This document shows, piece after piece, positions 35,697-64,000 of a stretch of DNA of 64,000 nucleotides (within the stretch, counting starts at the first letter, position 1; each line of letters opens with the position of its first letter). Under the pieces are notes generated by a model. It made no database searches. It was not told where the DNA came from and saw only the letters and a list, made by a program, of their open reading frames with translations. A program made the position numbers and the translations under genes. Origin of the DNA: Leucoraja erinacea (lineage: Eukaryota); the NCBI RefSeq assembly GCF_028641065.1, contig NC_073409.1, forward strand, positions 7,254,001 to 7,318,000. Reading direction: 5' to 3'.

Positions 35697-35970
35697 CTAC
35701 ACATCATCTTCCTTGCTGTCGGTGTAAAGGAAGCCAATGTTTCCATCCTTCCATTCGACCAGGATCTGTCCTTCTTTTGGGAGGACCTTTGGAGATGAGG
35801 TCTGTGCCACCTGGTTCAGGGAGATGTACGTCGGCTTGCTCTGTAGCATCTGGTCTGTTTCAGCAAGATTGTCAACCTCAACAACATATTGCATCATTGC
35901 CTTCTGTGTAGAGTCTGCCTCCGTTTCATTCCTGCCCTCTGCTCCGTTCAATGCCTTCATCTTTCGTGAC
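35697..35970 (-). CDS. SLC51B: Organic solute transporter beta, last coding exon (cytoplasmic tail)
   Basis: atgcag|G TCA CGA AAG ATG...; RSRKMKALNG...EGQILVEWKDGNIGFLYTDSKEDDV* matches my recollection of skate Ost-beta. Confidence 0.92.
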
Positions 35971-36673: not shown

Positions 36674-36764
36674 CTGTTAGCTCTGGAGTTTTGTGCCAGG
36701 ATGAGGAATGCCAGAAACAGAACCACAAATGCAAGGGCCAATATCGCATAGTTCCAGTTAGTGG
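36674..36764 (-). CDS. SLC51B: SLC51B transmembrane exon
   Basis: ctgcag|CC ACT AAC TGG...AAC AG|gtacgt; (P)TNWNYAILALAFVVLFLAFLILAQNSRANR carries the OST-beta WNY motif, a single TM helix and ANR. Confidence 0.93.
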
Positions 36765-38088: not shown

Positions 38089-38214
38089 GATCTTCCATCA
38101 GAAAGGATAACTGCTGAGCTAATGTACTGTTCCGTTCTCCAGTCATGTTCTGCTTCCCGATGCCAATTGTCTCATGTGGTTTGCTGATTGTTGCTGATGT
38201 CATATGTGTCTTGC
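38089..38214 (-). CDS. SLC51B: SLC51B ectodomain (stalk) exon
   Basis: gtaaag|GC AAG ACA CAT ATG...GAA GAT C|gtaagt; 126 nt, phase 1-1; (G)KTHMTSATISKPHETIGIGKQNMTGERNSTLAQQLSFLMED, with N-glycosylation sequons NMT and NST. Confidence 0.9.
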
Positions 38215-38350
38215 CTTTACATTGAAAGGAGATACCAGGAAATATGCATTAGTATTTTATATTTGCATATGTTCAAAGCCACAACGTGATCTGTTGTGAA
38301 TCACTCGTCTGTTGTTTCTTTTACTTCGTAAATATTTACATAATTAGTTA

Positions 38351-41170
38351 CATAGAAACATAGAAACATAGAAATTAGGTGCAGGAGTAGGCCATTCGGC
38401 CCTTCGAGCCTGCACCGCCATTCAATATGATCATGGCTGATCATCCAACTCAGTATCCTGTACCTGCCTTCTCTCCATACCCCCTGATCCCCTTAGCCAC
38501 AAGGGCCACATCTAACTCCCTCTTAAATATAGCCAATGAACTGGCCTCAACTACCCTCTGTGGCAGAGAGTTCCAGAGATTCACCACTCTCTGTGTGAAA
38601 AAAGTTCTTCTCATCTCGGTTTTAAAGGATTTCCCCCCCTTATCCTTAAGCTGTGACCTGGACTTCCTTAACATCGGGAACAATCTTCCTGCATCTAGCC
38701 TGTCCAACCCCTTAAGAATTTTGTAAGTTTCTATAAGATCCCCTCTCAATTTCCTAAATTCTAGAGAGTATAAACCAAGTCTATCCAGTCTTTCTTCATA
38801 AGACAGTCCTGACATCCCAGGAATCAGTCTGGTGAACCGTCTCTGCACTCCCTCTATGGCAATAATGTCCTTCCTCAGATTTGGAGACCAAAACTGTACG
38901 CAATACTCCAGGTGTGGTCTCACCAAGACCCTGTACAACTGCAGTAGAACCTCCCTGCTCCTATACTCAAATCCTTTTGCAATGAAAGCTAACATACCAT
39001 TCACTTTCTTTACTGCCTGCTGCACCTGCATGCCTACCTTCAATGACTGGTGTACCATGACACCCAGGTCTCGCTGCATCTCCCCCTTTCCCAATCGGCC
39101 ACCATTTAGATAATAGTCTGCTTTCCCCCGTTTTTGCCACCAAAATGGATAACCTCACATTTATCCACATTATACTGCATCTGCCAAACATTTGCCCACT
39201 CACCCAGCCTATCCAAGTCACCTTGCAGTCTCCTAGCATCCTCCTCACAGCTAACACTGCCCCCCAGCTTAGTGTCATCCGCAAACTTGGAGATATTGCC
39301 TTCAATTCCCTCATCCAGATCATTAATATATACTGTAAATAGCTGGGGTCCCAGCACTGAGCCTTGCGGTACCCCACTAGTCACTGCCTGCCATTGTGAA
39401 AAGGACCCGTTTACTCCTACTCTTTGCTTCCTGTTTGCCAGCCAGTTCTCTATCCACATCAATACTGAACCCCCAATGCCTTGTGCTTTAAGTTTGTATA
39501 GTAATCTCTTATGTGGGACCTTGTCGAAAGCCTTCTGGAAGTCCAGATACACCACATCCACTGGTTCTCCCCTATCCACGCTACTAGTTACATCCTCGAA
39601 AAATTCTATAAGATTCGTCAGACATGATTTACCTTTCGTAAATCCATGCTGACTTTGTCCAATGATTTCACCACTTTCCAAATGTGCTACTATCCCATCT
39701 TTAATAACTGACTCTAGCAGTTTCCCCACTACCGATGTTAGACTAACTGGTCTGTAATTCTCCATTTTCTCTCTCCCTCCCTTCTTAAAAAGTGGGGTTA
39801 CGTTTGCTACCCGCCAATCTTCAGGAACTACTCCAGAATCTAAAGAGTTTTGAAAGATTATTACTAATAGATCCACTATTTCTGGAGCTACTTCCTTAAG
39901 TACTCTGGGATGCAGCCTATCTGGCCCTGGGGATTTATCGGCCTTTAATCCATTCAATTTACCCAACACCACTTCCCGGCTAACCTGGATTTCACTCAAT
40001 TCCTCCAACTCCTTTGACCCGCGGTCCCCTGCTATTTCCGGCAAATTATTTATGTCTTCCTTAGTGAAGACGGAACCAAAGTAGTTATTCAATTGGTCCG
40101 CCATATCCTTGTTCCCCATGATCAACTCGCCTGTTTCTGACTGCAAGGGACCTACATTTGTTTTAACTAATCTCTTTCTTTTCACATATCTGTTTGCAGT
40201 CAGTTTTTATGTTCCCTGCCAGCTTTCTTTCATAATCTATTTTCCCTTTCCTAATTAAGCCCTTTGTCCTCCTCTGCTGGTCTTTGAATTTCTCCCAGTC
40301 CTCCGGTATGCTGCTTTTTCTGGCTAATTTGTACGCATCATCCTTCGCTTTGATACTATCCCTGATTTCCCTTGTTATCCATGGATGTACTACCTTCCCT
40401 GATTTATTCTTTTGCCAAACTGGTATGAACAATTTTTGTAGTTCATCCATGCAGCCTTTAAATGTCTTCCATTGCATATCCACCGTCAACCCTTTTAGAA
40501 TTAATTGCCAGTCAATCTTGGCCAATTCACGTCTCACACCCTCAAAGTTACCTTTCTTTAAGTTCAGAACCATTGTTTCTGAATTAACAATGTCACTCTC
40601 CATCCTAATGAAGAACTCAACCATATTATGGTCACTCTTGCCCAAGGGGGCACGTACAACAAGATTGCTAACTAACCCTTCCTCATTACTCAATACCCAG
40701 TCTAAAATAGCCTGCTCTCTCGTTGGTTCCTCTACATGTTGATTTAGATAACTATCCCGCATACATTCCAAGAAATCCTCTTCCTCAGCACCCCTGCCAA
40801 TTTGATTCACCCAATCTATATGTAGATTGAAGTCACCCATTATAACTGTTTTGCCTTTGTCGCACGCATTTCTAATTTCCTGTTTGATACCATCTCCAAC
40901 TTCACTACTACTGTTAGGTGGCCTGTACACAACACCCACCAGCGTTTTCTGCCCCTTAGTGTTTCGCAGCTCTACCCATACCGATTCCACATCCTCCAAA
41001 CTAATGTCCTTCCTTTCCATTGCATTAATCCCCTCTCTAATCAGTAACGCTACCCCACCTCCTTTTCCTTTCTGTCTATCCCTCCTGAATATTGAATATC
41101 CCTGGATGTTCAGCTCCCAGCCTTGGTCACCCTGGAGCCATGTCTCCGTGATCCCAACTATATCATAGTC
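38351..41170 (-). mobile_element. 5'-truncated CR1-clade LINE (HER1-like): APE endonuclease and RT, frameshifted
   Basis: ORF fragments 40163-41020 (VVYRPP, MGDFN, SDH), 39106-40185 (YLDFQKAFD, GVPQGSVLGP, KFADD) and 38450-39094; (CATAGAAA)n 3' tail at 38351. Sense orientation within SLC51B intron 1. Confidence 0.95.
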
Positions 41171-41572
41171 AAATTACTTACTAGTGCCTACTGGTGGTGA
41201 GAGGAGGTATTGAGGGGGGAGGCAGAATTAACTGTTGAGCCTTACCAAGGTGATGTGGGCCTAACTCAATGAAACACCAGTGAAGGGAGATGGTAACACC
41301 AATGATATACTGACATCTACACACCCAGTTTTTGTTGACCCATAGTTTAGATTTGTAAAGGCATTTTAGATTCTCACGTGGTATTGGGATTGGGTTTCTT
41401 GGTTAAACATTTAGCTTGTGTGTTTGTTAACATGTAGCTAGCTTGTTACTGAATACAAAGTTAGTTAAGGTCCTATTGCATTATTATGTATAGGTAGTTT
41501 AGATATTACTTTGGCATTGGGCTTGGTTGAGCGCTTATCCTGGTGTTGCTACACACCTACTTTGTAACTAAC

Positions 41573-41700
41573 TGGGTTTGCCCATGGTTTCTGATGTTAC
41601 ATGTGTCTTGTCTTTGCAATTAAAGGAGATACCAGAAGTCATGCATTAACATTTTATATTTGCACAGCCTCAAAGCAACAACATGGTCTGTTGTGAACCA
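41573..41700 (-). pseudogene. Diverged duplicate of the SLC51B stalk-exon 5' end and its upstream intron
   Basis: 41573-41700 aligns by eye with ~38176-38300; the peptide DKTHVTSETMGKP compares with GKTHMTSATISKP; the acceptor gcaaag| at 41611 is retained. Confidence 0.7.
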
Positions 41701-43206
41701 GTTAAATCCTGGAGTGCTGCCCTGAGTAACCTCATGTATCCGAGTTAGAAGGTTAGGTGTTCCAGTTCCGCTCCAGAAACTGAGCGCAAAACTCTAAGTT
41801 GACAGTCACGGCAGCAGAGGGCATATAGGGCTGTCCTGTCAGAGTTGACATGTCCACAAGAGAAGTTAACCATCCAGGTTGTCCCTCTCCAGGTAAAATC
41901 CTGGAAGGGAAGCAAGGGAGTTGACTTTGGTGTCTGACCTATTGATAGAGTTGATTGATAGAGTTATGCGCATGGAAACAGGCCCATCTGGTCAAGATGC
42001 CTCTGTATACTAAGGTACACAAAAATGCTGGAGAAACTCAGCGGGTGCAGCAGCATCGATGGAGCGAAGGAAATAGGCAACGTTTCGGGCCGAAACCCTT
42101 CTTCAGACCTCTGTATACTAATCCCATTGGCCTCAAAATCTTGCCTATCACTGAAATATATGGTCCTCATTACACATGGGTCTTTATGTTAACAAATTGC
42201 TGGGGAACGTTAGATGAGACCAAGATGGTCAATAACGTACTGATGTCCTTGGTCCAAACACACACTTTAAAAACAGTCAATGGGAAAAGACCCAAGAAGG
42301 TAGTTTGAATTTGCCATCACCTTCAAACTGAGCTTGAATTGAGCTTGTGGCACCCAGGGCTTCCTCACTGTTCTGGAAGTGAGGAGATGGAACAGTTCTA
42401 TTCGCACTTGACTTGCTTATGATTGCGGCAGCGAATCAATAATTTAAACCAAGAATAAGCACATTGGGTTGTTCCTGGCACCATTTATGTCCTTCAGAGA
42501 GTCTGATGAATCCTATGAAATAATTCAAATTTACCTTCTGCTCTTTGCCAATATATATTTGTTTTGAGGCTTTTAGCTTCTCAAATATCTTCTTTTAAGT
42601 TTGGTGAGGGGATCTGCTTATAGAAGTTGTTCATGGTCATAAGTGATCGGAGCTGAATTAGGCCATTTGGCCCATCAAGTCTACTCCGCCATTCAATAAT
42701 GGCTGATCTATCTCTCTCTCCTAACCCCATTCACCTGCCTTCTCCCCATAACCCCTGTCAATTGTACTAATCAAGAATCTATCTATCTCCTCCTTAAAAA
42801 TATCCATTGACTTGGCCTCTTGTTGAGTTGGAAAATATGAAGCAACAACTTTCAAAAGGTTACAATCTGATCACATTTAGCACGGTGCAAGGTCAACTCC
42901 ACATCCTGCACCAATCATGATCATTTGATTCAGTTTTCGACCAGTGTAACTAAAACTGCAGGCTGTGCCGCGAATCGCACTTGATTAAACAAAAAATGCC
43001 CAGACGTAGTCTTCCGATCAGGCATCATCTGTGAGAGGGAAGTGCTCTGAAGATTAGTCACCATCCTGCAAGGTTAACTGTGTTTCCCTCTGCACAAATG
43101 CTACCTGAACTCCCAATTGTTTCCACTTCTGATCTCCACAATTCATTTTCCTGAAGGATTTGAGTTCCTGCTCCTCCCATATCCATCTCTGATTTCTCCT
43201 TCTTAC

Positions 43207-43471
43207 ACCGAAGTTGCTCCTCGCAGATGTTGGTGTCATTTGCCGACCTCCATCTGGATTTTTTCCTCTTTTCTCTGGTAATCGACACCGCGGGCCCGTC
43301 ACTGGTCAGGAACCGAGACGTCTCCACGTGGACCAGATTGCGGTCCCTGCAAACCCACGCGAGGTTGGTCCCGTTTTCACAAACTGCGGTCATAACAAGG
43401 AAGGTCCCATCTGCCGAGAGGCATGGCTTGGTCCCTCGATTGTAGAGCTGGGTTCCTTTTCACGACCATTC
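43207..43471 (-). pseudogene. Cryptic or pseudo-exon in SLC51B intron 1 encoding a ricin-B/CysR-like lectin domain, 1 nt out of frame
   Basis: cttcag|GA ATG GTC GTG AAA [A] GGA ACC CAG CTC TAC AAT...CTT CGG T|gtaaga; 265 nt, or 264 nt (phase 1-1) if one A is removed. The Cys/Trp pattern resembles the mannose-receptor CysR domain. Confidence 0.6.
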
Positions 43472-43822
43472 CTGAAGTGGTGAGTCAGGGTTGCATGTCT
43501 CTGCTAACACACGGCTGTCTCTCACAGAGGCCACTAAACATTGACCCTTAATGCTCTTCATCACAAAAACGTCGACTCCTGCACACATTCAGAGAAAACG
43601 CAGCAAGTTGCAATCTTTACTTTAGACTTTCAAGGTTTCAAGGGCAGTTTATTGTCACATGTGGCAATTAATGTACAGTGATATTTGAGTGGCCATACAG
43701 CCATACTAAGTGAAAAGCAACAAGACACACAACCACATATAAGTTAACATAAACATCCATCACAGTGGATTCCACATTCCTCACTGTGGTGGAAGGCAAT
43801 AAAGTTCAATCTTCTTCCCCTT

Positions 43823-47635: not shown

Positions 47636-47693
47636 CTTGCAACAGCAGACACAGGATGAAGCAACCAAAGAGGTATTTCAACAAACCGCTCAT
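47636..47693 (-). CDS. SLC51B: SLC51B first coding exon (signal-peptide-like N-terminus)
   Basis: ATG at 47693; MSGLLKYLFGCFILCLLLQ(G) with donor CAA G|gtaat; acceptor ccctgcag| starts the exon at 47746. The four exons total 549 nt = 182 aa, the recalled length of skate Ost-beta. Confidence 0.9.
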
Positions 47694-47779
47694 GTCTGGT
47701 TTTCCAGTTGGAGGTGTGCGTCCGTGAGCTCCAAGATAAACAAGACCTGCAGGGAAAGATGATCTCAATCACAATTCCA

Positions 47780-55168: not shown

Positions 55169-55976
55169 AGCCTCATATAAAGGCACAGAAACATCTGATA
55201 ACTGGGTTAGCATCCAGTTAAAGCAATAAAGAGTGAAACAAGAGATAATACAAATAAATCCCAGTTGTTAATACATCAGGCTCACCTTATTTACGAGGGG
55301 TTCAAACCTCAGGAAACAGAGTGCTGGAGTAATTCAGCAGGGCAGGCAGCATTCCTGGAGAACATGGATAGGTGCCGTTTCGGATCGGGACAACTTCTTC
55401 AGACTGTAGTTCTTTGTTTCTACAGCGGTTCAAACCTGCCTCATTTTCCAAGTTGGCAACTGTAGTTTTGCAATGCGATGTTGGGAGGATTCATTGTTTT
55501 ATGAACGGAGCAAAGTTCTATCCAAGGTGCTAAACAGAGGACAATGCTAATATGATAATATGAAGCCCTAATCTCACTGAATGGTGGAATGTGCTGAAGG
55601 AGTAGTTTAAGTCCCTCCTGTTGTAGAAACAGGGAACTGCAGATGCTGCTTCACCCAAAAGGACACAAAGTGCTGGAGTAACTCAGCAGGTTAGGCAACA
55701 TCTCCGGAGAAAATTAATATTAGGTCATAAAAGAGACATTTTGGGTCTTTTTCTTCGGCGTAAACCAGCATCTGCAGTTCCTTCCTATACATTGGTAGTT
55801 GAGGCATGTAGAATAACAACATTCAAAAGACATTAGGACAGGTACATGAATAGAAAAAATTGAGAGGGATGTGGGTCAAACGCGGGCAAATGGGACTACC
55901 TTAGATGGAGCATCGTGGTTGGCATAGACGAGCGGGGCCGAAGGGTCTGTTTCCTTGCTGTTTCGGGAGTTAAATT

Positions 55977-56355
55977 AGGTGGTGCTGATGAGTGAAGTCC
56001 AGCAGCTGCAGTAACAGCCCGGAGCCTGCGGGAGGGGCTAATGGGCGGATGAGTCGGGTGACCAGAGGTGGCGCTGATGAGTGAACTCCGGTGGCTGCAG
56101 TTACAGCTAAAGCCTGTGGGTGGCGGGGAAGTCGGCTGACCAGAGGTGGCGCTGATGAGTGAACTGGGGCGGCTGCAGTAACAGCCGCAGCCTGTGGGTG
56201 GCGGAGAAGTCGGCTGACCAGAGGTGGCGCTGATGAGTGAACTGGGGCGACTGCAGTAACAGCCGCAGCCTGTGGGTGGCAGAGGTGGCGCTGATGAGTG
56301 AACTCCGGCGGCAGCAGTGATAGCGGCCTGCGGGCGTGCGGGCAGTGGAGTCGGC
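55977..56355 (+). repeat. GC-rich ~78-bp tandem repeat, about 5 copies, upstream of the DPP8 promoter
   Basis: CAGAGGTGGCGCTGATGAGTGAACT...CTGCAGTAACAGCC recurs at ~55977, 56063, 56141, 56219 and 56280. Confidence 0.9.
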
Positions 56356-56720
56356 TGGCCGGGGGCGGCGCTGTTGGCGGAGGGCGGGGCCGGATCCGCG
56401 GGGCGGGGATCGCCCCTCGCCCCCGTTTGTTGACGTCGGGGAGCGGAAGTGCAAGAGGAGCCCGGAAGCGAGGGAGGGAGGCGCGCAGTGCGGGTGAGGA
56501 TGGAGCGGGCGCCGCGTTTGTTCTCCCGCTTCAGCCGCCGAGCAGCAGCAGCAGCAGGAGCGACGCGCTCAATACATTCTGACCCTTGTCTTTTACCCCC
56601 CACCCCGGGGCAGAACCCTCCCTCCCTCCCTGGATGCGCGGCATTCACTCCCTGCCCGCACGTCGAACCTGCATTTGTGTAGCGCCGGCACCGTCCCTCT
56701 GCAGGGATCATGAGGGGAGG
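56330..56720 (+). promoter_or_regulatory. CpG-island promoter and probable non-coding first exon of DPP8
   Basis: GC/CpG-rich; GC boxes (GGGCGGGG near 56382 and 56400), CRE-like TGACGTC (56431), ETS GCGGAAGTG (56443); candidate donor CGG|gtgagg at 56493/56494. Confidence 0.65.
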
Positions 56721-58005
56721 AGTCTGACCTCACAGGTTTAATCACAGACATTGAGTGTTTAAGGGTCAGCGAGTCGTTGCCGCAGCTTTGCTTAGGCCGC
56801 ATTCTGTGTGTCGTGTGCAGTTCTGGTTTCCCCATTAACAGGAAGGGTGGGGAGGCTTTGGAAAAAGGTGCAGAGGAGGGAGGTTCATCGGGAAGAAGAT
56901 ATACACACAACGCTGCAGTCACTCAGCAGGGCCAGGCAGCATCTCTGGAGGAAAACAGGATGGGTGATGTTTCGGGTCGGGACCCTCTTCAGACTGAAAG
57001 TATTGGGTGGGTGGGGGAGAATTTGCAGGCGAGAAAAGATCAGGGCCAGCCACAAATGCCTGAATGATGCCTGGATTAGAGGGTGTAAGCTATAAGGAGA
57101 GGTTGTACAGACTTGGAGTGTTTTCTCAGGAATGCTGGAGGTTGCAGCGAGGTCAGATACAAGTATCAGATTCAATTTTAATTGTCAGTGTACAGTACAG
57201 AGACAACGAAATGCATTTCGTCAAAAAGTATATACATTTAGGAGAGACATAGACAAGGTAGACGGAACCTGAAGAAGGGTCTCAACCCATAACGTCACCT
57301 CCTATTCTCCAGAGATGCTGCCTGATCTGCTGAGCTCCTCCAGTTTTTTTGTGTCTATCTTTGGATTAAATAGCATATGCAGTTCCTTCCTACACATTTT
57401 TTTTACTGCAGGGCGGAAACGTTAAGGACTAGAGGGATAGATGTATGGTGAGAAGTGGGAAGTTTAAAGATATGGGGGGGCAAGTTTTATTTTACACTGT
57501 TGTGTGGGGTGGTGTTGGAGGCAGATAGATAATGGTGTTCAAAAAGATTTTAGACAGGTACATGGATATGCAGGGAATGGAGACATAGGGATCATGTGTA
57601 GACAAATTAGATTAGCTTGGCATCATGTTGGGCATGGCCGTTGTGAGCTGAAGGGACTGTTTCTGTGTTGTATTTATGCTCCAAAATCCATCAATTATTC
57701 AGCCTTTATATCTCAAATCCAAAATAAATCAATGTGAGATTGCCTCAAATGATGGAACCTATCACAGTTCTAATTGCAAGAGCTGGAACGTCATAGGAAA
57801 GCCAGCGAGTGGTACAGTTTCTGCACCAGATTACTTCCAATGTTGTGCATTATGTGTGGAGTGAGGAATAATCTAGAGGCATGCATTAATCTCAACAGCA
57901 CGCCACTCTACAGTAGTGCTGCTGTTGTTGGGGTAGCACATCTTAGGGGCAGTATCTGTGTTTTTATACTTCTTTCTCTGTCCTTATCTTTTAGGAGGGG
58001 TGTTG

Positions 58006-59496: not shown

Positions 59497-62138
59497 TGAT
59501 ATAATTTGGGGACTAAGAAGGCAGATAAAGATAATTTTTGTGTTCTGACTAATTGATCCCCCAGTCAGTGTGACTGAATAAAACTGAATCTGGTCATTAT
59601 TTGCGAGTGAAAGCAGGCTTTGCAATATGCCAACACTTCAAAAGCAGTGATTGAACTCTGACATGCTTAGGGGTGTGTTCTGCAACTGAACGAAAGGCCT
59701 TGTATAAATGCAAATCATTTTTATTTCACTTAGAAAATAGTAATATTGCCAAATGCTGATTCGCTCTCTAGCCTAACTTCCCCGTGGGAAAGCTTGTGAC
59801 TTCTCGCAGTATCCAAGTCTTTTTTTCCCTAAAATCCCTCAGCTGGGTGATCTTGTTTAGCATGTTTAACGTTGGATATGTTTTAAAGCTGTATGTCCAT
59901 CAGTTTTCTTGTTAGTTTGACCGGGTCGTCTTCTGATCAGCATCTGTTCAACGGGTCACCTAAAATCTATTCTGCTTGCCGAGCTACCCATATTGCTTCT
60001 AAACTGATAACTAGTTCACACTTGCATTCTTCGTAGACTAATTCTAGCAAAATGCTCCCCATATAATGTCATTGAGAATCATTCTGTTTACATTGTATGG
60101 AATTATATATTGCCTGAAAAATTGAGATGCCAGCGTCAGGGTTAGAGTTAATGAGTGGCCAAGCACAGTTTACAAGTTCCAGTAAACAGCGCTATTTTCT
60201 ATTCTATGTAGAAGTGTATTGGCATTTCTTTGTTACTGGGTTAGAATCGTGGGAACTGTCTAGTATCACTGTGGGAGTACTGACTGAAGGACTGCTCAGC
60301 ACATTCTAATCAAGGAGAGTTAAGGATAGACACACAATGCTGAAGTAACTCAGCGGGACAGGCAGCATCTCTGGAGAGAAGGAATGTGTGACGTTTAGGG
60401 TCAAGACCATTCTTCAGACTGGTTAAGGATAGGATAGGTACTGAACATTGGCCTTGCCATGAACAAGGCCTGGATAGAGTGAATATGGAAAGGATGTTTC
60501 CACAAGTGGGAGGATATACAACCAGAATAAAAGGATGTGCCTTTAGAAAGGAGAAACAGAGAAACATAGACATAGAAAATAGGTGCAGGAGGGGGCCATT
60601 CGGCTCTTCGAGCCAGCACTGTCATTCATTGTGATCATGGCTGACCGGCCCCAATCTGTAACCCGTGCCTGCCTTCTCCCCATATCCCTTGATTCAACAA
60701 GCTCCTAGAGCTCTATCTAACTCTCTCTTAAATCCATCCAGTGATTTTTGAGATGAGGAATTTATTTTAGCCAGAGCATGGTGAATCTGGAATTCATTGC
60801 CACAGAATGCCGTCAATGCATATTTTTAAGGCAGAGATTGACAGATTCTTGTCGGGAGAAAGCAGGAGAATGGGGTTAAGAGGGAAAGATAGATCAGCTA
60901 TGATTGAAGTTTCAGGATGAGCTTATTCTTGATCTGAGTTGCATATAGTGCAGCAACATTAGATTAAGGAATTGGTATTTTACTGCTTTTTGCTATGTAA
61001 GAATTGAGAGATTTTGTTCCATGTGATTAAAGGCGTGAGACCATGGTAGATATTATGATGGTTTTGCAGCTAGATCAGGTTTATTTTCACAGATTTATTA
61101 CGACATTTAGTTTAGAGACACAGCGTGGAAACAGGCCCTTCGGCACACTGACCATGCCAACCACCAATCCCTGCGCACTATCACTATCATACACACACTA
61201 AGGACAATTTACAATTATACCAAGCCAATTAACCTATAAACCTGTATGTCTTTGGAGTGTGGGAGGTGTTACAATGGAACAGGTTCAAGGATCTAACTCG
61301 TAGAACAGAAAAAGGCTCACTCGTCTCTTTAGTTACAAATCAGTTTTATTGACGAGAGGACAAAAGCAATACGTCTTGGTATGCGTGGACTCCCTCTCCC
61401 TCTCACTCCTCCCTCCCCCCCCCCCCCCCTCTCCATCCACGGTGCTGATCGGGACTCAGACCGTCAGTGAAATCCCTCTCATGCATAAACCTATGGCTTC
61501 TTGGCGCCTGTCTTTATACAGGTAAGAAATCAGCCGTTTAAATAACTGCAGGTAAGTCCTGGCCAATAGCATTGCTCTCAAATTCAAACTCAAACCAAAG
61601 GCAGGGACTGCATCCGAGTGAGCCCCCCCCCCGGTTTGGGAACAAAGCACCATCAGCCGCAGACTGGCACGTAAAGCAATATCAGCACTACAGACTTGCC
61701 GCGCAAAGCAAAGCACACAGCGCTGCCGATTTGGCGGGCAAAGGTATAAACGGAGCGCTGTCAGCTTTGCGCTATGGGTTCTAAATATAGCGCTACCGGC
61801 CCCAGGCACCGCCCATAGTCGGGATCGAACCCGAGTCTCTAGAGCTGCAAGGCCCAACTGTACCACTGCGTCACTGTGCCGCACAAGTCATAACAATGAG
61901 GCATAACAATCCGGTTATATTTGATATGATAGTACAGCGTTCAATTGAAATCAAGATCAGGTAAAGTTCGCTGTTATACAAGAAGATTTTAAACCAGAGC
62001 AAAGTCCTAAAATTCCACTAAAGGACAAAGATAGTTGTTTTACCGTTGAGCTGCCTGTTATGCAGTAAAGAAATCATTTATACGAGAGGTTTGAGGAGGT
62101 GCGATGATCAATGATGCCTTGACTGTTTTATTTTATAG

Positions 62139-62507
<369 letters not shown>

Positions 62508-63020
62508 TAAACCTATTCTATCCATGTACCTGTCCAAATGTTTTTTAAACGTTGTGATTGTACCTGCCTCAATTTCTTCCGCCATCAGCTCTTTCCATAT
62601 ACCTACAACCTTTTGTGTGTCCCTCAAGTTCTTATTTAATTTTTGTCACCTCACCTTAAACCCATGTCCTCTGGCTCTTGATTCCCCCAACTTTGGGTAA
62701 AAGACTGTATCTAGTCTATATATTCCTCTCGTGATCTTATATACCTCTATGGGATCAACCCTCATCCTCCTGCACTCCAAGGAATAAATTCTTAGCCTGC
62801 TCAACCTCTCCCGTTAGCTCAGGCCCTCGAGTCCTGGTAACATCTTTGTAATAGATCCCAGTGTACACTCTAGTGCTTCTGCCAATAACGTAGTTTGCCT
62901 TATTTATTTAAAGTACTTTGCAGCAAAAGGATATTAAAAGTATCTACCCATATAAATATATTCATGAGGTTTGTTAGTTTAAAAAATATATATCTACCAT
63001 GTTCCCACTTTGATCATTAA

Positions 63021-63335
<315 letters not shown>

Positions 63336-64000
63336 TAAACAATCCTCTTATGCTAAAGTCAACATCTTTCCATTGCTGCACATACTATTGAGCCAATATT
63401 GAGCAGACATTTGAGTCGGGAGAGGACAGGCGGCTGACCTTTGCATATAAAGGTGTTGCTGAGAGTCTTGCCAAACGTTGCATCAACTTGAACTTGTCTT
63501 CATGGTGTTGTCAGAGGTCTGTTCTAATAGTCTTTAGTTCGCAGTCATGGAGTTATACCGTGTGGAAACAGGCACTTCAACATGCTCATGAACCAAATGT
63601 ACCAGAGAGACATTGGTTAAATTTGCAGGCGATGTTACAGTAGCAGGGCTCTGCTTCTCCAGAGTCGGGGGAGAAAGTCAGCCTTGTTCCTCCACTTCAG
63701 GCTCCTCAGTAATCCCAATGTTATTGTCCAGCAGTACACAAAGTCCAAGCAATTGAATAATATATAGGAAATCTGCCATCACAGTGCCTTCCACCACAGT
63801 GATTAATGCTGTGGTGGATGTTTGTGTTACATTTTTATTGTGTTTGTGTGTTCTTTATCATTGTACCGCTGCTGACAAATTCATTTCACTTACACTTTAT
63901 GTGCAATGTGACGAATAAAACTGATTGTATTGTATTGTAGAAGGATAAAGAGCATTTATGTCTGCAAATATATTGTGTAACTTCAACATCTCCTGCGTAA

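Follow-up and report, generated by a model that had tools for sequence, protein, structure and literature searches.

In the gene slc51b, which encodes OST-beta, the window (the whole stretch of 64,000 nucleotides of Leucoraja erinacea DNA that was analysed) contains a minus-strand segment, 43578-43207, part of which had been noticed in a sequence-only reading as a hidden lectin-like exon. We hold with reasonable confidence that this segment is a complete trefoil exon of slc51b, broken by a single stop codon and absent from all skate protein records checked, and that it is likely an ancestral cassette which is skipped by skates and is likely decaying. The ancestral OST-beta of jawed vertebrates would have been a type I membrane protein combining a signal peptide, a CysR-type β-trefoil, a stalk, a transmembrane segment and a tail. 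The trefoil would be dispensable for transport, since the short skate form and the 128-residue human form both transport and the skate and mammalian OST subunits complement each other, as given in the accessible part of PMC4924846. Being symmetric, the exon can be skipped without loss of frame, and skipping would yield the 182-residue skate form. Once skipping had become the rule, selection on the exon would have been relaxed, and the haplotype of the window would then have acquired a nonsense codon together with a weaker donor.

Borders of the trefoil exon and its host gene

The trefoil exon (minus strand, 43207-43578, 372 nt, phase 1 at both ends) is delimited by reading frame, Pfam matches and the borders of homologues, and it encodes a complete CysR/ricin-B-type β-trefoil in which all six cysteines are retained. 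Its acceptor, TGTGCAG, lies at 43579|43578 and its donor at 43207|GTAAGA (43201-43207), the last exon base being T in the window; both ends have the phase of the signal-exon donor and of the stalk-exon acceptor of slc51b. An in-frame TGA at 43462-43460 (codon 39) is the sole defect. In the Pfam check of the peptide, set beforehand, the whole exon with X at the stop passes the threshold of Ricin_B_lectin (PF00652; E 5.3e-07, 30.3 bits against a cut-off of 29), and it matches CysR_MRC2_N (PF24562) below the cut-off (E 0.0015, 18.7 bits against 27). With homologues that carry the domain at the matching protein position, this bears out the earlier assignment of the segment to a trefoil exon of slc51b.

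The borders first proposed did not hold. Of the features described, the sequence does contain the donor, the A4 run (43460-43457), a CAG whose last base is 43472, and the peptide from 43459 onwards. The acceptor had been placed at 43471, with one base to be removed from the A4 run and about one trefoil subdomain thought to be missing. The CAG in question (43471-43474, minus strand) is out of frame within domain-coding sequence and is probably not used: 265 nt separate it from the donor, and a phase 1 reading from it stops after 30 codons. The same reading frame continues 107 nt upstream to 43579|43578; as it runs through the single TGA to the 43578 acceptor, the exon is complete without the removal of any base, the supposedly absent subdomain being encoded by 43578-43472. 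The 83-residue part enclosed by the earlier borders matches CysR alone, with no Ricin_B match. Nor do sequence reads at 43457-43460 contain an indel in the compared runs: the two runs that cover the exon, X20 and X22, have G in place of the first A of the run, which gives TGG. Because the frame extends as far as 43578 and the runs list no indel, an acceptor at 43471 combined with a one-base deletion was rejected. The two candidate acceptors have equal pyrimidine content (12/19 each), so that 43578 is preferred on frame and homology.

The host gene lies on the minus strand, and all four of its coding exons translate exactly to P0017 (XP_055517125.1, Leucoraja erinacea slc51b isoform X1), which scores 49.3 bits with OSTbeta (PF15048; cut-off 27). 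The coding start (47636-47693) has 19 codons, residues 1-19 of P0017, that may be taken as a signal peptide from their hydrophobic look; this exon has its acceptor at 47745 and a phase 1 donor. The stalk exon (38089-38214, 126 nt, phase 1-1) encodes residues 21-61, the transmembrane exon (36674-36764) residues 63-91, and the last coding exon with the stop (35697-35970) residues 93-182. The Pfam OSTbeta match falls on the transmembrane exon, which by itself stays below the cut-off of 27 (E 1.4e-05, 25.7 bits). The gene has in common with known OST-beta (little skate Q90YM4 and XP_055517125.1; human, 128 residues) that it encodes the single-pass partner of OST-alpha, to which OST-beta contributes one transmembrane helix in a 2:2 complex (PMC13346981, accessible part). 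It had been noted before that the characterised skate and human proteins lack a trefoil, and this is so, whereas the skate locus itself carries the exon.

On the plus strand, slc51b is neighboured by a DPP8/9 gene starting at about 57.9 kb of the window and by a Ras-family gene ending at about 30.1 kb; human SLC51B lies near RASL12 and DPP8. A LINE-type retrotransposon of about 2.9 kb (38350-41260, minus strand), in which pieces of endonuclease and reverse transcriptase lie in different frames, sits between the trefoil exon and the stalk exon, and its insertion may have favoured skipping of the trefoil exon. The region 41575-41700 (minus strand) is a copy, about 125 nt long, of the stalk-exon acceptor and exon start. 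This partial duplicate contains a candidate 39-nt phase 1-1 mini-exon (41573-41611, minus strand, GTTAGT donor) that would encode 12 stalk-like codons and is present in none of 21 skate and ray protein records. In the DPP8/9 gene, one exon end seems to be partially repeated (62095-62510 and 63392-63643, plus strand), an ESGE-RRLTFA-like stretch occurring twice, and near the start of that gene a G+C-rich region (55896-56729, minus strand) consists of several imperfect tandem copies.

Homologues and the probable ancestral architecture

A HMMER search with the trefoil exon gave 53 matches, with species names established for 20 of them; 36 were scanned with Pfam, and 17, mostly long multi-stretch matches, were left out. 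The trefoil and OSTbeta occur together in 13 of the 36 scanned records (12 by Pfam; P0022 by alignment and fold). The best matches are slc51b of the horn shark Heterodontus francisci (P0022, 313 residues, 49%) and of the devil ray Mobula hypostoma (isoform X2, P0023, 58%), the latter record being partial and beginning inside the trefoil domain. Without any gap, 59 of 120 residues are identical between the skate exon and horn shark slc51b, a resemblance that chance would not produce. In the horn shark protein the trefoil begins right after the signal peptide, exactly as the acceptor at 43578 predicts, and in both the shark and the devil ray proteins it ends at the position predicted by the donor at 43207. 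Named species with trefoil and OSTbeta belong to Heterodontus, Mobula, Dermochelys, Amia, Acipenser, Aldrovandia, Arapaima, Paramormyrops, Puntigrus and Pampus; Huso is found in the cluster of the Acipenser record. The full-length records P0027, P0081 and P0082, on Logan contigs of 1.1-1.5 kb, point to spliced messages. In the Atlas, a cluster named "slc51 subunit beta" with 116 chordate members carries OSTbeta in 100%, CysR in 39% and Ricin_B in 26%; with feature-search scores below 0.9, this is a lead at most.

In full-length homologues, Pfam finds only the trefoil and OSTbeta, without fibronectin II and C-type lectin domains. The architecture of signal peptide, trefoil, stalk and transmembrane segment that had been postulated as ancestral is found in shark, turtle and ray-finned fish records; across fishes, trefoil and OSTbeta are joined in shark, ray (partial), bowfin, sturgeon and teleosts. 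A domain tree of 36 domains, from which three near-duplicates were left out, places the window exon with Mobula and Heterodontus slc51b, with support values (89/80 and 89/94) below the bar for a star. The teleost group and the turtle-containing group are starred. Four Logan records with an open trefoil (P0024, P0025, P0032 and P0034) fall with the turtle sequence (100/100), a hint that the exon may persist in other sauropsids.

Trefoil and OSTbeta are also combined in paralogues from Protopterus (XP_043933812.1) and Chiloscyllium (XP_043543437.1, named si:dkey-245n4.2), which stand apart from the window exon in the tree. Like slc51b, the si:dkey-245n4.2-like proteins have a signal peptide, a trefoil, a transmembrane segment and a C-terminal motif, with OSTbeta matches and 29% identity to horn shark slc51b over the full length. 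Because this paralogue shares the layout, signal peptide, trefoil, stalk and transmembrane segment were likely already assembled before the split of cartilaginous and bony fishes.

Exon skipping in skates and the stop codon of the window

None of the 21 skate and ray OST-beta records examined contains the trefoil. Eleven of them reach the signal exon, and all eleven (including five Logan assemblies, one cloned cDNA record and models from Pristis and Rhinoraja) join it straight to the stalk, as expected from the earlier suggestion that skates leave the domain out. The Mobula hypostoma isoform X2 (P0023) includes the exon. Word-based searches for skate proteins of 217-2000 and of 45-146 residues returned none bearing it; these searches are weak, one of them having missed P0022 at 49% identity, and lengths of 147-216 residues lay outside their coverage. 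No RNA run was listed as carrying the exon in a sequencing-run search with the exon region, and the RNA run X24 has no read on it in 7.3 million records (about 6% of the run), a count that has no positive control, the compared stretch holding no other slc51b exon. Seventeen possible-RNA runs at 0.20-0.22 probably match the LINE; X16, the one of them that was compared, has nothing on the exon. Nonsense-mediated decay depends on the distance of a stop to the downstream junction. For the haplotype of the window, inclusion would place the stop 254 nt before the next junction, and a message including the exon would likely be destroyed in this way.

The codon interrupted by the TGA (43460-43462, minus strand) encodes Trp in 35/35 homologues. 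In this alignment the Trp is invariant, and the other 14 of the 15 invariant or near-invariant positions are kept in the window. Of four DNA or RNA runs compared over 42830-43720, two reach across the exon, X20 and X22, each with a single contig. Relative to the window, X20 (organism A, which may differ from the species of the window) differs at 15 of 775 letters and X22 (organism E) at 25 of 826. Both have TGG at codon 39, no indel, no stop, and G as the last exon base. A G at this place is closer to the donor consensus than a T, and the donor reads G|GTAAGA in X20 and X22 while the window has T as its last exon base. Recoding of the TGA (selenocysteine or readthrough) was dropped, the other alleles simply having TGG.

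When the odd letter of three is counted, the window has four private non-synonymous changes (stop included), one synonymous change and the donor change, X20 has four non-synonymous and four synonymous changes in the exon, and X22 six and one. Pooled over the three alleles, 14 non-synonymous changes (stop included) and 6 synonymous ones give a dN/dS of 0.70, with an interval of 0.25-2.2 that includes real purifying selection; the value is not distinguishable from neutral (p 0.30, three alleles). Between the window and X20, 14 of 15 differences lie inside the exon and one in the flank 42830-43206 (binomial p 2.9e-4). Half of the exon differences (7/14) are CpG transitions, the exon having 21 CpG against 7 in the flank, and within the exon the window, X20 and X22 alleles are about equally distant from one another. 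The concentration of differences in the exon may result from mutation bias (CpG decay), a haplotype mosaic or balancing selection.

That the exon is open and indel-free with intact splice sites in X20 and X22, and that the six cysteines are kept, argues against decay and for constraint until recently or still. The exon might accordingly be a live cassette, minor or tissue-restricted, whose long isoform works in TGG animals, the window then carrying a segregating null allele. The G|GTAAGA donor of both alleles, the 14 conserved positions, the Mobula isoform with equal exon borders and a dN/dS interval reaching down to 0.25 all agree with it. We nevertheless consider it unlikely in view of the skipping seen in all eleven informative records, cloned cDNA and Logan assemblies among them, the failure of the searches made to return an exon-bearing skate protein, and the X24 count of zero with the reservation just given; moreover, X20 has changes at well-kept columns, e.g., Ser111 to Leu and Thr63 to Ile.

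The window's own haplotype occurs in none of the compared runs, and the assembly is consequently the one source of the TGA. Should it be an assembly error, an A called for a G where a G run meets an A run, the exon would be intact in all skates, which fits either splicing state. Both covering runs read TGG, neither shows A, and the change does sit at a homopolymer border. An error is nonetheless improbable: the window has five more substitutions of its own in the exon, including two CpG transitions and one change at the donor, and so looks like a real, distinct haplotype that is not in X20. Little skate heterozygosity is 1.6% (PMC10115646, accessible part) and X20 has 15 differences in 775 letters; several residues also vary between two slc51b records of the little skate. 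These two, P0017 and P0018, are both from Leucoraja erinacea; among skate OST-beta records at large (P0017 against P0018; Logan records P0001-P0021), several stalk and tail residues vary.

Fold, kinship and fate of the trefoil domain

The fold was taken from the predicted model of the intact horn shark homologue P0022, in which residues 23-131 form a 12-strand trefoil (pLDDT block means 90-97 over residues 21-130). In a profile search against solved structures, the mannose-receptor CysR domain was the best match (E 9.3e-18), with the ricin B chain at E 5.2e-05. Structure matches gave human and mouse CysR at Z 19.1-19.0 (rmsd about 2, 120-123 residues aligned), tied with actinohivin and DEC-205 at Z 18.6. 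Like the CysR domains of the mannose receptor family (MRC1 1DQG/5XTW, MRC2, DEC-205, PLA2R; PF24562), the slc51b domain is a trefoil with six cysteines, encoded by a single phase 1-1 exon behind the signal exon; several fish homologues pass the PF24562 cut-off, e.g., P0055 at 36.7 bits, while the skate exon does not. The two differ in what follows, a short stalk and the OSTbeta transmembrane segment in slc51b, fibronectin II and C-type lectin domains in the mannose receptor. An MRC1-like exon of the skate genome (G000:C2) has phase 1-1 borders equal to those of the slc51b trefoil exon to the base: the first border lies five nucleotides ahead of Asp-Val-Phe, the second five codons and one base beyond the last Cys. 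Since these borders are identical, the two exons likely share one module. The MRC1-like exon (L005, 1588-1986, minus strand; G000:C2, about 23.585 Mb) visibly has the residues of the sulfated-sugar motif.

With ricin-B or R-type lectins (PF00652, actinohivin, CBM13) the slc51b exon shares a β-trefoil with Q-x-W repeat, although it is a domain of a vertebrate membrane protein without a toxin part, unlike ricin. R-type lectins carry Asp at the first-lobe position after Cys-Leu; this position is Gln or Glu in 30/33 rows. In MRC1, whose sulfated-sugar site also takes in the 111-116 loop, sulfated GalNAc is bound by Asn99, Asn102 and Trp117 (PMC2193177, accessible part), which align to Ser, a gap and Lys in the slc51b profile; the commonest letters in the Trp117 column are Leu, Asn, Lys or His. 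Of the earlier designation as a lectin, the fold is upheld by Pfam and structure matches and the sugar-site residues of the mannose receptor are absent; "lectin" is used here of the fold and not of a demonstrated activity. Sharks and skates use bile alcohol sulfates. A trefoil that worked at the mouth of the OST-alpha/beta tunnel as a lectin for sulfated sugars or sulfated bile alcohols, its loss having changed transport, would be in keeping with mannose-receptor CysR as the closest solved relative (rmsd 2.1 over 121 aligned residues at Z 19.1), with the basic loop before the last Trp in shark and skate, and with the movement of sulfated steroids by OST via an extracellular tunnel (PMC13346981). 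The replaced site residues and the transport by short skate and human forms that lack the domain make this quite unlikely. Most likely, the trefoil would serve in folding, in trafficking or in binding a protein, as a dispensable module, and would not bind sugar.

That the segment might be a member of a repeat family, or a stray mannose-receptor piece landed in the intron and unrelated to slc51b, can be dismissed: the intron is repeat-rich and the borders equal those of the MRC1-like exon, but the exon lies outside repeat-covered stretches in a self-comparison of the window, has a single match in the genome assembly G000, finds its best matches in horn shark and devil ray slc51b at the matching protein position, and is far from the MRC1-like exon in the tree.

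Furin recognises the consensus R-X-K/R-R. Right behind the trefoil, R-S-K/R-R is present in all six neopterygian species with full-length records (P0029, P0031, P0033, P0035, P0041, P0055); the motif follows the last Cys of the trefoil, and 34-46 residues then lead to the Trp at the start of the transmembrane segment. The four sturgeon records have R-X-X-R only, and the motif is absent in the shark, the ray, the turtle, one further record and three paralogue records. In genomic-looking records the open frame enters an apparent intron at the motif, which hence seems to be formed across a splice junction. The neopterygian trefoil is likely clipped at this predicted site, and the remaining stub would be close to the 35-residue ectodomain of human OST-beta (128 residues; PMC4924846, accessible part). 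Removal of the trefoil would thus proceed by skipping in skates, likely by cleavage at R-S-K/R-R in neopterygian fishes, and by deletion in mammals. On this reading, an outer domain of ancestral origin has likely disappeared from skates and mammals, whereas in bony fishes it would be clipped off.

A broader picture can be put forward only tentatively. OST-beta might be the stump of an ancient family of small trefoil receptors with two genes, slc51b and si:dkey-245n4.2, and its working transporter might have lost the trefoil in three ways: in ray-finned fishes furin would release it as a soluble protein, in skates the exon would be skipped while null alleles still segregate, and in mammals it would have been deleted together with the signal peptide. 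The trefoil shed in fishes could then be an unrecognised gut factor under bile-acid regulation, and the alleles of the skate exon may be old and kept by balancing selection.

OST-beta and the trefoil are both known, and their combination is already visible in automatic names and Pfam tags. In the openly accessible literature, most subscription papers being outside this coverage, no description of a trefoil-bearing OST-beta was found. A survey of domain shuffling (PMC11788884) contains no OSTbeta in its text or five supplements; slc51b occurs 11 times in a trout paper (PMC13157367) that uses neither "lectin" nor "ricin" in its accessible part; and one checked paper mentioning both OSTbeta and ricin has, in the part available, ricin only in a reference title. 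OST-beta has come to be regarded as a tiny helper with a single membrane pass, having been cloned from skate and examined in mammals, both lineages without the trefoil. Records from shark, turtle and ray-finned fish carry an extra folded module of 120 residues, in fish forms with a likely cleavage site, and these change how fish OST-beta should be modelled and tagged; the architecture also explains why many orthologues are filed as "uncharacterized" or "Ricin B lectin domain-containing protein". Through a symmetric exon, the skate locus offers a clear example of a domain that is likely being lost at present. The skate pseudo-exon is a modest finding by itself, and the testable part lies in the family architecture and the furin lead.

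The finding also directs attention to the unstudied paralogue si:dkey-245n4.2, whose protein may be a second partner of OST-alpha or of TMEM184 proteins. In the skate this is a separate gene (source name "uncharacterized") with a stop-free trefoil exon and no furin-type motif, located on G000:C1 at about 35.15-35.19 Mb (L002, 1507-1923, minus strand; L003; L004).
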